Shown: positions 13,983 through 25,687 of the stretch, piece after piece
Numbering within the stretch: position 1 is the stretch's first letter
Layout: the number at the start of each line of letters is the position of its first letter
NCBI RefSeq assembly: GCF_055900595.2
Contig: NZ_JBVWEU010000002.1
Strand: one strand, 5' to 3'
DNA: 64,000 bases
DNA from: a plasmid
Position numbers and translations under genes: made by a program
The notes under the pieces: generated by a model
Databases searched by the model: none
The model's input: the letters and a program-made list of their open reading frames with translations, nothing else
Told to the model about the DNA's origin: nothing

Positions 13983-14053
13983 CCGGAAAGCTTTCAGCTT
14001 TGAGCCAGTTATGAACCGCCCCGGGTTTCCTGGAGAGTGTTTTATCTGTGAAC

Positions 14054-14944
14054 TCAGGCTGCCAGATCATCGTTTCCGATGGAAGCATAATAAGCTTTTT
14101 CTGCTTCTGCCGGAGGAGTATGGCCCAGCCTTCCCAGCAATCGTCGATTGTTATACCAGTCCACCCACGTTAGTGTGGCCAGTTCCACTTCTGCACGGTT
14201 TTTCCAGCTCTTACGGTGTATTACCTCCGCTTTGTAAAGACCATTGATGCTCTCAGCCATCGCGTTGTCATACGAGTCGCCTGTACTCCCTGTTGATGCC
14301 AGTAATCCGGCTTCTTTTAGTCGCTCCGTATAGGCCAGTGACACATACTGAGAGCCTTTATCGCTGTGATGGATGGTGCCAGACGGACGACGGGCCCACA
14401 ACGCCTGCTCCAGCGCATCCAGCACGAATGTCGTTTCCATAGACGATGAGACCCGCCACCCCACGATGTATCCGGCAAACACATCAATGATAAACGCCAC
14501 ATAGACGAAGCCCTGCCATGTGCTGACGTAAGTAAAATCAGCCACCCACAGCTGGTCAGGTCGTTCTGCCACGAACTGACGGTTTACGCGGTCGCCTGCG
14601 GCAACGGCTTTCCGGCTGATGGTCGTACGGACCTTTTTACCCCGGAGAACACCGGCAAGTCCCATAACCGCCATGAGACGTGCCACTGTACATCTGGCCA
14701 CCCTGATTCCTTCCCGTAACAACTGACGCCAGACTTTACGCACACCGTACACCTGATGATTTTCATCGTATACGCGCTGTATCTCTCTCTTCAGCCAGTC
14801 GTCGTGCTGCGCACGGGCACTGCGTTTATCCGGATGATGTCGCTGTTGCTGACAATGGTAATACGTTGACGGGGCAATATGCAGTTCGCTGCATACCGGT
14901 CCGACCCCGTACTGCTCACGCAGCTTATCCAGCAGTGGCATCAT
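14054..14944 (-). CDS. IS3-family transposase OrfB (DDE catalytic domain)
   Basis: 296 aa; DFTYV ... HSDKGSQY ... [15 protein letters not shown] motifs. Confidence 0.8.
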
Positions 14945-15267
14945 TTTTTCCAGAGGCGGTCGAACTCCGCCTTCGCAAAATAAGCGGAAGCCTGGCGAAG
15001 GATATCGTTACTGCGGCGCAGTTCACGATTTTCACGTTCCAGCTCTTTCAGACGCTGACGTTCAGCGCTGGTGAGCCCACCATCACCGCCCCCGGTATCC
15101 CGCTCATGCTGGCGAACCCAGACACGCAGAGTCTCCGGCGTACAGCCAATCTTTGGAGCAATGGAACAAATTGCCGCCCACTGTGAGTCATATTCATCCT
15201 GACTTTCCAGAACCATACGAATCGCCCGCTGACGGACTTCGGGGGAAAAACGAGTATTTTTAGTCAT
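14941..15267 (-). CDS. IS3-family transposase OrfA (HTH)
   Basis: 108 aa, [21 protein letters not shown]..., leucine-zipper tail; overlaps orfB start. Confidence 0.8.
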
Positions 15268-15539
15268 CCTGTTTACCTCTTTCTCAGGGAGTTTAGTCTC
15301 CAGGATTTCCGGGGCGGTTCAGAAGACGCTGAAGTTCTGCGCTTTGATAATTTTGACGATGCCGTTGAGTGCTGCGCTGACCTGGGTATTCCGTTCTTTC
15401 TGGATGCAGGAAACAAAAAGCTGGTCTTCTGGTTTGTTCGTGTCGATGACGAAGGGTATCCGGAAATAGCCCGCTGTACGGAGCGGGAGTTTGCAACCAT
15501 TCTTGCCGGTATCAGTGCCGGTGGTATGTACTGCCCGGA

Positions 15540-15850
15540 ATGCGGCACAGTTCACTGGCCGGATGGCGTTACCCCACCCGTCTGATGCTTCCCCGTTTTG
15601 CCGATATTTTTCAGCAGGGTAACCGCTGGCTTAACTGGCTGGAGAAACAGCCGGAAGGTTCAGTGCGTCCGGTGGTGACTGAGTCAGTGACAAAAATCAT
15701 GGCATGCGGGACCACGCTGATGGGCTACACGCAATGGTGCTGTTCGTCACCGGACTGTTGCCACACCAAAAAGATCTGCTTCCGGTGTAAAGCCGCTCCT
15801 GTCCGAACTGCGGGGTGAAGGCTGGCGCACAGTGGATACAGTATCTTGTA
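15540..15850 (+). pseudogene. N-terminal zinc-binding fragment of a transposase (IS91/Y2-type-like), frameshifted and truncated
   Basis: ACGTTLMGYTQWCCSSPDCCHTKKICFRCK then, in a shifted frame, SCPNCGVKAGAQW; stops shortly after. Confidence 0.3.
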
Positions 15851-16051
15851 TGTAATAGGACTTGATGGCTAGCTACCATCATATGAAGCAGAGTGAGCTT
15901 GTCCCAGCCCTGAACAGTCAGACTTTGATTAGCAGCAAAAGCCCTCTGCTTCACCTTTCACGCCAGCATTAACATTGAACGGTTGCCAAGAGCGATGACT
16001 CTGCATGTACAAGGGGAATAGGCGTGATGGTTTGGTGAAAGGAGAATATTC

Positions 16052-22960: not shown

Positions 22961-23296
22961 TTACTTATTTCCTCTGTGAATTTCAATATGATGCTTGGGT
23001 GTCACTACCCTGAGATTATCGATATCATAAACAGCGCCACCATCCGTAACGCGCTTGATATGGTGCAGTTCGAAACGTTCTCGTTCACCTACACGCTCTG
23101 ATTCAGGAACAAACGAAGATTTACCTTTTGTAACCAGAACCTTATTCTGATTTTTGAACTGCTTCAGTAACTCCGGATCTTTCCCCACTTCCATCCACAA
23201 CGCCTTACGGAACCACGGCAGCCTGGAGGCTGCAAATCGGGGTGTGGCAGAATATGAGCTTTCAGAGTAACCATCCAGAATGAGTTCCCATGTCAC
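22961..23296 (-). CDS. HNH DNase toxin domain (colicin E9/pyocin-type C-terminal nuclease), probably a truncated remnant
   Basis: 111 aa ending ...RERFELHHIKRVTDGGAVYDIDNLRVVTPKHHIEIHRGNK (HNH motif); no translocation or receptor domains upstream. Confidence 0.6.
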   Translation of the reverse strand: MTWELILDGYSESSYSATPRFAASRLPWFRKALWMEVGKDPELLKQFKNQNKVLVTKGKSSFVPESERVGERERFELHHIKRVTDGGAVYDIDNLRVVTPKHHIEIHRGNK

Positions 23297-23946
23297 ACAA
23301 CCTAGAGCACCAGAAAGTCCACACCAGAATGGTGAAAGAGGTTCTGAAAGCCGTCGCCAGAGCCAATAATCACCCTTATCAGTCCGTATTTACAGACTTT
23401 ATCGCCGGTCATCCCTCCTGCACGGTCTGTTTCTGGGAAACCTTCAACAAAATGTACCCGGATTCACCGTACGAATACGTCACGTTCTGCCATACCTGCC
23501 GTCGTTTGATTTATACGAAACAGAAGCGGAGATGAAGGCGGATGACCCGAAGTGGTGGTGATTTTCAGCCCCGACCGCTGAAACGCCTGTTCACAATGTC
23601 GCGGTATAAAAATCGACCATGCAGAGAGAGAAACCACCGGAGTGGTGGGAAAAGCAGAAAGGCTCACGTGGCATAAGGCGTGGACAGCGGTATCGTCTGG
23701 TTTTTCAATTTCCTATACGTGAACACAATCTGCAATTCGGTATACAGCGAACCTGCCACCATAAGTGTTTTTATACCACTTAACTGGCTCAGCACCGGGG
23801 GCAGGCTTCATTCTGAATTCATCGCGCAGACGTCCTTTCGAGAAACACCTGTCTTCGGCAATCTCCTGCGCACGTCTGGTGACCAGCTCATCATTATTCA
23901 TGGTTCTTGCATCTCCGTCAGACGTTTTTATATCCGGACAGCCCCT

Positions 23947-24100
23947 CTATGGCCACTTCTGTGCAGTATGCAATACACGCAGGATATACACTTTTCCCCA
24001 CTGGCTGTCGACCTCATAAACCAGAACAAAATGCGGGTGAATAACCAGTTCCCGGGTACCTTCCACACGACCATTGCGGCCTTTATACGGCTGCCCGGCT
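23947..24100 (-). pseudogene. 3' fragment of a RelE/ParE-family toxin gene
   Basis: C-terminal ...GTRELVIHPHFVLVYEVDSQWGKVYILRVLHTAQKWP; the N-terminal part of the ORF is antisense IS66 sequence. Confidence 0.4.
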
Positions 24101-24109
24101 AGGCTGCTG

Positions 24110-24942
24110 GCTGAACACCCGCAAGGTTCACACTGATGACACACCAGTAAAAGTACTGGCACCGGGCAGGAAGAAGGCGAAAACAGGATATGTCTGGACG
24201 TATGTCCGGGATGACCGGAATGCCGGTTCGCCAGAACCTCCGGCGGTCTGGTTCGCCTACTCACCGGACCATCAGGGTAAACATCCGGAGCAACACCTTC
24301 GTCCCTTCCGGGGTATCCTGCAGGCAGATGCGTTCGCAGGTTACGATCGGCTGTTCAGTGCCGAACGTGAAGGCGGCGCGTTGACGGAAGCAGGATGCTG
24401 GGCTCATGCGCGGCGCAAAATCCACGATGTATATATCAGTACCAAAAGCGCGACGGCGGAAGAAGCACTGAAACTAATCGGCGAACTGTACGCCATTGAG
24501 CACGAAATACGCGGGTTGCCGGTGTCTGAACGCCTGGCGGTCAGGCAAATGCAGAGTAAACCGCTACTGACTTCCTTGTATAAGCTGATGCAGGAGAAAG
24601 AACACACGTTATCGAAAAAATGCCGTCTGAGAGATGCGTTCCGGTATATCAGGAAGCACTGGGTTGCGTTGTGCAACTTCTGTGATGACGGTCTGGCGGA
24701 GGCGGACAATAACACAGCGGAAAGAGCGCTTCGTGCAGTCTGTCTCGGAAAGAAAAATTACGTGTTCTTCGGTAGCGATCACGGCGGCGAGCGTGGTGCA
24801 CTGCTGTACGGGCTGATCGGCACCTGCCGTCTGAACGGTATCGATCCGGAAGCGTATCTGCGCCATATTCTGAGCGTACTGCCGGAATGGCTTTCCAACC
24901 GAGTTGACGAACTCCTGCCATGGAACGTAGTACTCACCAATA
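24110..24942 (+). mobile_element. IS66-family transposase gene fragment (C-terminal half), frameshifted, cut at 3' by the IS629-like copy
   Basis: ...VKVLAPGRKKAKTGYVWTY... then CWAHARRKIHDVY...DNNTAERALR...LPWN. Confidence 0.6.
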
Positions 24943-25687
24943 TGAACCGCCCCGGGTTTCCTGGAGAGTGTTTTATCTGTGAACTCAGGCTGCCAGATCA
25001 TCGTTTCCGATGGAAGCATAATAAGCTTTTTCTGCTTCTGCCGGAGGAGTATGGCCCAGCCTTTCCAGCAATCGTCGATTGTTATACCAGTCCACCCACG
25101 TGAGTGTGGCCAGCTCCACTTCTGTCCGGTTTTTCCAGCTCTTACGGTGTATTACCTCCGCTTTGTAAAGGCCATTGATGCTCTCCGCCATCGCGTTGTC
25201 ATACGAGTCGCCTGTACTCCCTGTTGATGCCAGTAATCCGGCTTCCTTAAGCCGCTGTGTGTAGGCCAGCGATACATACTGAGAACCTTTATCACTGTGA
25301 TGGACTGTGCCGGACGGTCGACGGGCCCATAACGCCTGCTCCAGAGCATCCAGCACGAATGTCGTTTCCATAGACGATGCGGCTCAGTTCACGATTTTCA
25401 CGTTCCAGCTCTTTCAGACGCTGACGTTCAGCGGTGGTGAGCCCGCCATCACCGCCTCCCGTATCCCGCTCATGCTGGCGTACCCAGACACGCAGAGTCT
25501 TCGGTGTACAGCCAATCTTTGGGGCAATGGAACAAATTGCCGCCCACTGTGAGTCATATTCGCCCTGACTTTCCAGAACCATACGAATCGCCCTCTGACG
25601 GACTTCGGGGGAAAAACGAGTATTTTTAGTCATTCTGTTTACCTCTTTCTCAGGGAGTTTAGTCTCCAGGATTCCCGGGGCGGTTCA
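24943..25687 (-). mobile_element. IS629-like element with an internal deletion of roughly 570 bp (orfA 3' end through mid-orfB)
   Basis: Same terminal sequences as the 14012-15321 copy, but the orfA translation diverges after RENREL and the orfB N-terminal half is absent. Confidence 0.75.

Follow-up and report, generated by a model that had tools for sequence, protein, structure and literature searches.

The 64,000-nt plasmid stretch that we analyzed (here, the window) contains two IS629-type insertion sequences in direct orientation around a segment that carries eitABCD. We consider it likely that the two elements took up residence independently in an IncF virulence plasmid of the ColV type and reached their present arrangement by serial IS activity in the steps described below, and that the segment did not arrive as a unit. 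The short copy is old and widespread, the intact copy is lineage-specific, and the junctions in the window are unique; together, these observations point to serial independent IS activity and not to composite transposition. The features of the region are as follows.

14012 to 15321, minus strand: intact IS1203 (IS629 isoform, IS3 family), 1310 bp, with 25-bp terminal inverted repeats
14054 to 14944, minus strand: orfB of IS1203, 296 aa, with HTH_21, rve, and rve_3
14870 to 14986, minus strand: ALIL pseudoknot, the programmed -1 frameshift signal of IS3-family elements (Rfam RF01497)
14941 to 15267, minus strand: orfA of IS1203, 108 aa, with HTH_Tnp_1
15322 to 15818, plus strand: truncated hypothetical CDS, homologue of WP_000124098.1 (5' end cut by the IS1203 junction), then an IS91-family N-terminal fragment
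16052 to 17062, plus strand: IS110-family transposase gene (NF033542, 205.5 bits, above cut-off)
17425 to 18276, plus strand: serine recombinase gene (17640 to 18230) between 49-nt inverted repeats beginning GGGGTC, a Tn3-family-like relic
18585 to 22625, plus strand: eitABCD (substrate-binding protein, permease, ATPase, MFS), with EitA and EitC equivalogs above cut-off
22703 to 23296, minus strand: C-terminal colicin/pyocin DNase-domain fragment and immunity gene (PF21431, PF01320)
24381 to 24942, plus strand: IS66-family transposase C-terminal fragment (PF03050, PF13817), adjoining the left end of the short copy
24943 to 25687, minus strand: internally deleted IS629-type element, 745 bp, both inverted repeats intact
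25210 to 25219: three-SNP patch (25210 G, 25213 T, 25219 C) with IS1203 alleles in a non-IS1203 background
25688 to 26114, plus strand: IncI1 nikB relaxase fragment, adjoining the right end of the short copy

The sequence-only reading that preceded this analysis had placed two direct IS629-like copies at 14012 to 15321 and 24943 to 25687, and repeat finding and BLAST on the window reproduced both sets of coordinates exactly, to the base. Positions 1 to 437 of the short copy align with positions 1 to 437 of the full copy at 94.7% identity (E = 0), and positions 436 to 745 align with positions 1001 to 1310 at 95.5% identity (E = 5e-144). The short copy is the product of a 565-bp internal deletion, with its junction at 25378/25379 and a 2-bp (TG) ambiguity. 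Both copies have 25-bp terminal inverted repeats starting TGAACCGCCCCGG, and their longest tracts of perfect identity reach up to 121 bp. Because the transposase frames of both copies are on the minus strand, the copies are in direct orientation. The interior of the segment was also described accurately: profile searches recovered the IS110 element, the resolvase, eitABCD, and the DNase fragment/immunity pair. The DNase fragment (Col-Pyo_DNase, PF21431) covers profile positions 44 to 124 of 124, the IS66 fragment is 83.8% identical to ISEc23 copies, and the nikB fragment is 97% identical to nikB of IncI1 plasmids. The resolvase cassette was considered as an active mini-Tn3 and rejected as a relic, since it has no 5-bp duplication.

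The full copy has the size and ends of IS629/IS1203 (1310 bp, arms 88 to 92% complementary, start TGAAC), and it is 100% identical over 1310 bp to many plasmid copies that PGAP annotates as IS3-like element IS1203 family transposase, including an inverted IS1203 in pEc45-2020-190kb. It agrees with the IS629/IS1203/IS3411 isoform group in length, 25-bp inverted repeats, orfA/orfB, ALIL pseudoknot, and rve DDE core. Its two overlapping ORFs (orfA with HTH, orfB with DDE/rve) are accompanied by a frameshift signal that scores 121.5 bits, compared to a gathering score of 50, and the left copy apparently encodes an intact transposase. The short copy differs from this group by its 565-bp loss and by belonging to a sub-type approximately 5% from IS1203. 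When we tested whether it was instead a different IS3-family element, it proved to belong to the IS629 group: apart from its one internal deletion, it is homologous to full-length IS629-type elements from end to end, both inverted repeats included; over its 745 bp, it is 95.0% identical to IS1203, 98.5% to the p4710_2020 sub-type, and 98.8% to sub-type X. Sub-types of IS629 are 4 to 5% apart, with IS1203 counted as an isoform (PMC3271280). At approximately 95% identity, the full and short copies represent separate IS629 sub-types, and neither is a copy of the other.

The deletion in the short copy removed the frameshift signal together with the end of orfA and the first half of the catalytic core. 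Positions 1 to 46 of the rve profile are gone, and a search with Rfam matched the ALIL pseudoknot in the full copy only. Lacking these parts, the short copy cannot encode a transposase. The published internally deleted IS629 of O55:H7, with an 86-bp deletion, is a different derivative.

Target duplications of IS629 are 3 to 4 bp (PMC3271280). The 3-bp flanks in the window are TTA and GAA for the full copy, ATA and GTA for the short copy, and TTA and GTA for the outer pair; thus, as the sequence-only reading had noted, there is no matching 3- to 4-bp target duplication around the full copy, the short copy, or the whole pair. Microhomology at the window's IS1203 junctions, at 1 nt per side, is uninformative. 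Given that only 21 of 47 IS629 sites in O157:H7 have a duplication (PMC3271280) and that the full copy sits at a rearrangement joint, its missing duplication is not disqualifying for IS629 membership. The same count makes a missing duplication a weak argument, taken alone, about how the pair arose. The earlier preference for serial insertion or recombination over a single composite transposition is upheld by comparison with other plasmids rather than by the missing duplications.

That comparison, which the sequence-only reading had proposed, found the eit block and the short copy with both of its flanks in 64 PLSDB plasmids, most of them without the left copy. For example, pAPEC-O2-211A-ColV is contiguous across window positions 15321 to 31500 with five differences (99.97%) and has no left copy. 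The closest relatives of the window are plasmids of the pEc45-2020-190kb type, of which there are seven. Collinearity with pEc45-2020-190kb extends over window positions 1 to 47030 at 99.5 to 99.98% and is interrupted at the IS1203 locus and at two further IS-related sites. In this plasmid type, the identical IS1203 is inverted and lies beside an IS1 and 368 bp absent from the window, which consist of the IS30 3' end and backbone; canonical sequence at the truncated CDS runs at least 368 bp further left than it does in the window. In the window, IS1203 is located at the joint of the etsABC flank and the eit region. At the left junction, the window has CAGTTA followed by IS1203, this relative has CAGTTATTAA followed by IS1 and the inverted IS1203, and canonical plasmids have CAGTTATTAAAACC. 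On the ets side, the breakpoint of IS1203 in the window and that of IS1 in the relative are only 3 to 4 bp apart. We found the window's pair of IS1203 junctions in none of 72,556 plasmids and 5,426 complete E. coli genomes.

The left copy varies among lineages in position, orientation, and sub-type. Plasmid p3R-1 has an independent left copy (IS1203 at 99.4%) approximately 1.8 kb further left; we considered this element as a sub-type mosaic, which was unconvincing because the differences are scattered. The Klebsiella pneumoniae plasmid p4710_2020 at first appeared to share the right junction of the window, but its element lies 22 bp further right and is of another sub-type, making it an independent event. 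Two plasmids with unusually long spans (H15 and H17) were suspected of inversions; H17 is an ordinary pEc45-2020-type plasmid. A SNP cluster at 30877 to 31149 relative to a sister plasmid is peculiar to the sister plasmid, not to the window. The eitABCD region of ColV/ColBM plasmids such as pAPEC-O2-ColV and pAPEC-O1-ColBM is the same module as in the window; in the window, however, an intact IS1203 joins the block directly to the etsABC flank. The IS629 beside eitABCD in pAPEC-O1-ColBM was previously noted as a possible vehicle (PMC3251573).

These comparisons show an order from the canonical form to the pEc45-2020 type to the window. The 745-bp element is an old non-autonomous derivative of a non-IS1203 IS629 sub-type; many ColV/ColBM plasmids have it fixed within their eit region, at the joint of the IS66 and nikB fragments. 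The intact IS1203 is recent and lineage-specific. The first stage is the canonical form, with an intact IS30 left of the eit block, and the second is the pEc45-2020 type, with the etsC flank, IS1, inverted IS1203, and truncated IS30. The third stage is the window, which has lost IS1 and the 368 bp along with 4 bp of the ets flank and has IS1203 in the opposite orientation. No single known reaction leads from the second stage to the third. The mechanism would require two or more steps driven by IS1203: local copy-out-paste-in re-insertion of IS1203 in a new orientation, followed by an IS-associated flanking deletion in which the old IS1203 copy was lost. Among the plasmids compared, we found no intermediate with two IS1203 copies.

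Alternatively, the left junctions could be the outcome of homologous recombination involving IS1203 copies that lay on separate molecules or far apart, with ets fused to eit through an IS-mediated deletion. The ets flank and the eit region are approximately 40 kb apart in the same orientation in canonical ColV plasmids, IS629-type copies are abundant in such hosts, and the window's IS1203 has unrelated flanks and no duplication, as for a recombinant copy. The precursors expected under this scenario would be one plasmid with IS1203 joined to GAAGACGC at the eit side and another in which IS1203, flanked by a TTA duplication, interrupts a region downstream of etsC that is intact in other respects. 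However, the adjacency of ets and eit already exists in the seven pEc45-2020-type plasmids, where the identical IS1203 is oppositely oriented, and homologous recombination has no way to invert one IS with respect to the sequences on both sides and at the same time delete IS1 and 368 bp. This scenario would need a second, independent fusion with breakpoints 3 to 4 bp and 368 bp off the first, and we regard it as unlikely. Neither this scenario nor serial IS activity accounts for the 3- to 4-bp closeness of the ets-side breakpoints beyond a shared AT-rich target.

Serial IS activity, our preferred explanation, places two homologous sequences on one molecule, and the short copy contains a sign of exchange. 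The three-SNP patch matches IS1203 at three of three diagnostic sites (sub-type X agrees at two of three), lies between non-IS1203 alleles at positions 25186 and 25246, and is present only in the window's short copy among the 20 copies compared. This pattern indicates gene conversion and shows that the lineage has undergone homologous exchange. A conversion tract of 10 to 59 bp would have passed from an IS1203-type donor into the short copy. The neighboring copy is the putative donor; any IS1203 in the cell could have served, given that 64 kb are visible here.

A crossover between the direct 437-bp and 310-bp homologies (approximately 95%) would delete or duplicate the 9.6-kb eit block. The suggestion in the sequence-only reading that the arrangement is a substrate for deletion or amplification is reasonable in light of the 121-bp identity tracts and the three-SNP patch, but it stands as potential only, with neither junction found in 72,556 plasmids. 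The junction expected after deletion (ets flank joined to the sequence right of the short copy, with an IS allowed between) had no match among these plasmids or in a scan of genome contigs, and the tandem-duplication junction (IS66 flank, IS, and start of the block) had no record among the same plasmids, the joined matches being unrelated IS66/IS91 neighbors at 87 to 91% identity. Hybrid elements (L015, L019, and L021) were met only in draft assemblies, and a recombinant junction of sub-type X with the short element, modeled on L019, was present in no plasmid.

Is the arrangement, the patch, or both an artefact of assembly or polishing at repeated IS sequence, for example by mis-mapped IS1203 reads? 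Mis-joins classically occur at IS copies, neither of two large collections has the window's junctions, and the hybrid elements were met only in draft assemblies. Against this, the joins A/IS1203 and IS1203/C are new and could not be produced from pEc45-2020-type reads, and mis-mapping should also convert the neighboring diagnostic sites (244 and 304 to 319) rather than three sites within 10 bp. We regard an artefact as very unlikely.

The 745-bp derivative also occupies two sites in chromosomes, each with a perfect 3-bp duplication: one in the IMT5155/DE17 chromosome (GAG) and one in 1517k (GTA), where it splits malS. Removing the element from 1517k in silico restores a malS ORF of 676 aa, and the chromosomal elements of IMT5155/DE17 and 1517k are identical to each other. 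Full-length IS629-type copies, the cognate autonomous element, are present in the same hosts (4546 of 5426 E. coli genomes), and records with the chromosomal derivative have four to five IS629-type places each. We note that the halves of our 301-bp and 100-bp junction probes for the derivative also join across full-length copies. In excision assays, IS629 copies that lack a transposase are acted on by one provided in trans, and deletions associated with IS629 have been described (10.1101/2023.06.07.543989). The two chromosomal sites with perfect duplications, one of them in malS, indicate that the 745-bp derivative is mobilized in trans, a property newly recognized here; having kept both ends, the short element would have transposed elsewhere by means of trans-supplied transposase.

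In this respect, the short element resembles MITE-like and other non-autonomous IS derivatives, which also keep both terminal repeats without a transposase and are found at different sites with the 3-bp duplication of the parent type. Classical MITEs are smaller, however, and the short element, unlike MITE-like elements, retains an OrfA-like ORF of 113 aa. The comparison extends to two documented independent simple insertions of the short element.

Tn9 is a compound transposon bounded by direct IS1 copies. The window likewise has related, direct IS elements around cargo, with one supplying transposase, but it differs in having no flanking duplication, copies of unlike sub-type and age, and a right copy and cargo that are older than the left copy. 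The idea that the 11.7-kb segment is such a transposon, moved as a unit via its outer ends, is barely credible: two IS629-type elements in direct orientation, intact and nearly identical outer ends, an apparently intact transposase in the left copy, and demonstrably transposition-competent ends of the short element are all compatible with it, but this origin is already contradicted by the lack of a duplication around the whole unit (TTA vs GTA), the 5% divergence of the copies, the presence of the right copy and everything from 15322 rightwards as contiguous ancestral backbone where the left copy is absent, a left flank consisting of native sequence downstream of etsC with a break specific to the lineage, and the failure to find the unit in any of the 72,556 plasmids or 5,426 E. 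coli genomes.

What the arrangement may become is a separate question. Because the ends of the short element are competent and the neighboring IS1203 transposase is intact, the 11.7-kb unit of IS1203, eitABCD, and mini-IS might now be a newly made functional compound transposon capable of moving eit, with the mini-element, as the L019 hybrid suggests, serving as portable homology for plasmid-chromosome recombination; we rate this as something of a long shot.

Overall, the arrangement is ordinary serial insertion-sequence mosaicism on a ColV-type E. coli virulence plasmid. In practical terms, the gain is modest: for one ColV lineage, the IS events by which the ets and eit virulence modules became joined are dated and ordered. 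The truncated IS629 annotated beside eit in many APEC/ExPEC plasmids would be a mobilizable mini-element, not inert debris, and its patch offers a sequence-level example of probable gene conversion between IS629 sub-types. This is a well-documented case of known processes, which leaves the understanding of IS3-family biology and ColV plasmid evolution unchanged.

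Repeat finding and pairwise BLAST placed the two insertion sequence copies at exactly the ends proposed in the sequence-only reading, and its list of the contents between them (IS110 element, resolvase, eitABCD, DNase/immunity pair) also held. The block lies on a ColV-type IncF virulence plasmid and has the following features:

Upstream of the block: etsABC, a MacAB-TolC-like system
14012-15321: full copy, IS1203, 1,310 bp
14870-14986: ALIL frameshift pseudoknot, in the full copy
16052-17062: IS110-family transposase gene, inside the block
17640-18230: serine recombinase gene, inside the block
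24943-25687: short copy, 745 bp, same orientation as the full copy
Also inside the block: a truncated hypothetical gene and IS91 fragment; eitABCD; a colicin/pyocin DNase C-terminal fragment and immunity gene; a ParE/RelE-type remnant; an IS66 transposase fragment

The full copy encodes orfA (HTH_Tnp_1) and orfB (rve), and many copies on plasmids that bear the annotation IS1203 family match it at 100% identity. By pairwise BLAST, positions 1 to 437 of the short copy match positions 1 to 437 of the full copy (94.7% identity) and positions 436 to 745 match positions 1001 to 1310 (95.5%), so that the pair is, as first described, a complete and an internally deleted element. The deletion spans 565 bp, and 2 bp (TG) at window 25378/25379 leave its junction ambiguous. 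Through it orfA has lost its end and the rve core its first half, and the frameshift signal is gone; a 113-aa OrfA-like ORF remains, along with a C-terminal rve fragment of 128 aa. Inverted repeats of 25 bp (TGAACCGCCCCGG...) bound both copies. The full copy lies between TTA and GAA and the short copy between ATA and GTA; in agreement with the earlier observation, flank comparison revealed no matching target duplication at either copy or around the pair.

Several other features adjoin these elements. In the region 15820-17420, an IS110-family element has approximately 230 nt of noncoding sequence upstream and 360 nt downstream of its transposase gene; the region contains no Rfam match at the gathering threshold, and the element lies just left of a Tn3-like repeat. 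At 17425-18276, 49-nt inverted repeats that start with GGGGTC, contain ...GTTAAGAC, and resemble Tn3-family terminal repeats enclose an 852-bp resolvase-only cassette around the serine recombinase gene, with no 5-bp duplication; directly to its left (approximately 17323-17432) is a fragment found in thousands of IncF plasmids. A match to STnc490, an Hfq-binding sRNA family, at 13960-14033 (+) reaches 59.5 bits (gathering score 56). It covers only 74 nt of the 124-position model and runs from the hairpin downstream of etsC across the joint into the initial 22 nt of IS1203; a resemblance to the IS end, not a genuine sRNA gene, probably accounts for it.

The second copy is not a different IS3-family element, which would have refuted the sequence-only reading, but an IS629-group element of another sub-type. 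Thirty-seven diagnostic sites distinguish it from IS1203. Its identity is 98.5% with the full-length sub-type of Klebsiella pneumoniae p4710_2020 and 98.8% with X, a third full-length sub-type, which lies upstream of etsA in canonical ColV plasmids with an AGG duplication. IS1203 and IS3411 are treated as IS629 isoforms, and IS629 sub-types differ by 4 to 5% (PMC3271280). The two are not copies of each other; both are IS629-group elements, differing in sub-type and age. Canonical plasmids hold X at the site matching window 7700-7715 (AGG/CCT duplication); the window's lineage is without X, and the empty target there shows a single CCT at 7707-7709.

Comparison with related plasmids shows that the short copy is old backbone. 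It occurs with both flanks in 64 PLSDB plasmids, and the canonical pAPEC-O2-211A-ColV is contiguous with window 15321-31500, with only five differences, and has IS30 without an IS629-type copy left of the block. The block and short copy thus occur without the left copy. The short copy sits at an old recombination joint, because the fragments on its two sides (IS66 to the left, 427 bp of IncI1 nikB to the right) are unrelated, and this accounts for its lack of a duplication.

The full copy, by the same comparison, is recent and lineage specific. Neither of its junctions was found among 72,556 plasmids or 5,426 complete Escherichia coli genomes. Window 1-47030 is collinear with the sister plasmid pEc45-2020-190kb (99.5 to 99.98% identity), and the two differ by an insertion of IS903B, by an indel related to IS1, and at the IS1203 locus, for which three arrangements were compared:

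Canonical: etsC flank continues ...CAGTTATTAAAACC
pEc45-2020-190kb and six other PLSDB plasmids: etsC flank ...CAGTTATTAA, IS1, IS1203, 368 bp, GAAGACGC...
Window: ...CAGTTA, IS1203, GAAGACGC...

IS1203 in the second arrangement is identical in sequence to that of the window and opposite in orientation. Because the 368 bp consists of the IS30 3' end and backbone contiguous in canonical plasmids, the order of events is canonical, then pEc45-2020 type, then window. Left copies in other lineages are their own acquisitions: p3R-1 carries IS1203 at 99.4% identity approximately 1.8 kb further left, and in p4710_2020 a non-IS1203 sub-type lies 22 bp to the right of the window's position, together with another copy that is inverted. 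The preference of the sequence-only reading for serial insertion or recombination over a single composite transposition now stands on stronger evidence: the IS events were serial and independent, and the 11.7-kb unit (IS1203, eitABCD segment, and short copy) never transposed whole.

Elsewhere in the sister plasmid, IS903B lies at window 8563-8571 with a 9-bp overlap, as expected for a target duplication, and approximately 625 bp of additional IS1-related DNA lies at window 39630/39631. Fifteen SNPs within 273 bp of fdrA-region genes (window 30877-31149) set the sister plasmid apart from both the window and pAPEC-O2-211A-ColV. Because a paralogous fdrA/DUF1116/DUF2877 cluster is present as well in the sister plasmid (NZ_CP134087.1, locus L007), the SNPs there could mark a conversion tract.

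Deriving the window's left junction from the pEc45-2020 type requires a flip of IS1203, loss of IS1 and 4 bp, and loss of the 368 bp on the other side. Homologous recombination is unable to flip a single IS relative to both flanks. In the simplest scheme that we infer, IS1203 would insert locally by copy-out-paste-in in the new orientation, and an IS-associated flanking deletion would then take out the old copy and the DNA between. IS629-associated deletions are documented (review 10.1101/2023.06.07.543989); no intermediate between the two arrangements was found. Microhomology at the window's IS1203 junctions is 1 nt on each side. On the ets side, the breakpoints of IS1 and IS1203 fall 3 to 4 bp from each other, for which the only account we can offer is a shared AT-rich target beside a terminator-like hairpin.

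That the pair is a potential substrate for deletion or amplification, as had been proposed, is reasonable. The homology arms are 437 and 310 bp, with longest perfect-identity tracts of 121, 59, and 44 bp (left) and 49, 39, and 39 bp (right). RecA-dependent exchange needs approximately 25 to 30 bp, which these tracts exceed, and 5% divergence reduces exchange efficiency. The predicted deletion and tandem-duplication junctions were absent from 72,556 plasmids, a weak negative result, given that the window's own configuration is one of a kind. Homologous interaction is indicated by a patch in the short copy, which differs from those of the sister plasmid and pAPEC-O2-211A-ColV solely at element positions 268, 271, and 277 (window 25210, 25213, and 25219), where it has exactly the IS1203 alleles (G/T/C); positions 244 and 304, on either side, carry non-IS1203 alleles. 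Only two further differences occur in the surrounding 15.5 to 16 kb, and the chance of three random substitutions hitting diagnostic sites with donor bases is approximately (37/745 x 1/3)^3, or 5e-6. X agrees with the patch at only two of the three sites, and the 101-bp mosaic has no exact match among PLSDB records. The patch is best read as a 10- to 59-bp gene-conversion tract from an IS1203-type donor, plausibly the copy 9.6 kb away.

X-like or IS1203-like patches also occur in other short copies in the same context (loci L012 and L026). Three draft-assembly contigs carry short elements with one flank exchanged: the left flank differs in L015, the right in L021, and L019 is a clean hybrid (X left flank and left arm, short-copy right arm and right flank; crossover between positions 277 and 415) whose junction type is absent from complete plasmids. 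These are only suggestive of recombinant elements, because in draft assemblies a chimera could produce such a switch within a repeat. At approximately 2947-4030 of locus L019 (2.08-Mb contig, GCA_949281515.1), the hybrid element and 339 bp from upstream of etsA link ColV-plasmid DNA with a nikB fragment, a cysteine hydrolase gene, and AllH to chromosomal mobB-mobA-yihD, a join that is either chromosome-integrated plasmid DNA or an assembly chimera.

The short element also occurs outside plasmids. An identical 745-bp derivative, deletion junction included, is present on the chromosomes of APEC strains IMT5155 and DE17, at one common site flanked by GAG, and of strain 1517k, within an alpha-amylase gene and flanked by GTA, where an uninterrupted 676-aa ORF is regained once the element and one GTA are taken out. 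These chromosomal copies are mutually identical and carry the unconverted alleles (A/A/T). The flanking duplications and the restored ORF argue that the derivative is a nonautonomous element mobilized in trans at least twice. Across the assembly collection, 2,340 blocks record the 113-aa ORF that runs over its deletion junction, most of them in ColV context. The published internally deleted IS629 of O55:H7 has an 86-bp deletion and is a distinct derivative; no earlier description of the 745-bp derivative was found in the literature searched, which covered few subscription journals.

Overall, the original observation was confirmed and its interpretation supported. We consider it improbable that the 11.7-kb unit now works as a functional compound transposon for eitABCD. 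That ColV plasmids are IS-rich mosaics is well known. IS629 beside eitABCD in pAPEC-O1-ColBM has already been proposed as a possible vehicle (PMC3251573). To this the window adds a unique ets-eit fusion via IS1203, an apparent conversion scar in the short copy, and evidence that eit's truncated IS629 neighbor is a mobilizable mini-element, all of them new and ordinary cases of known kinds of event.
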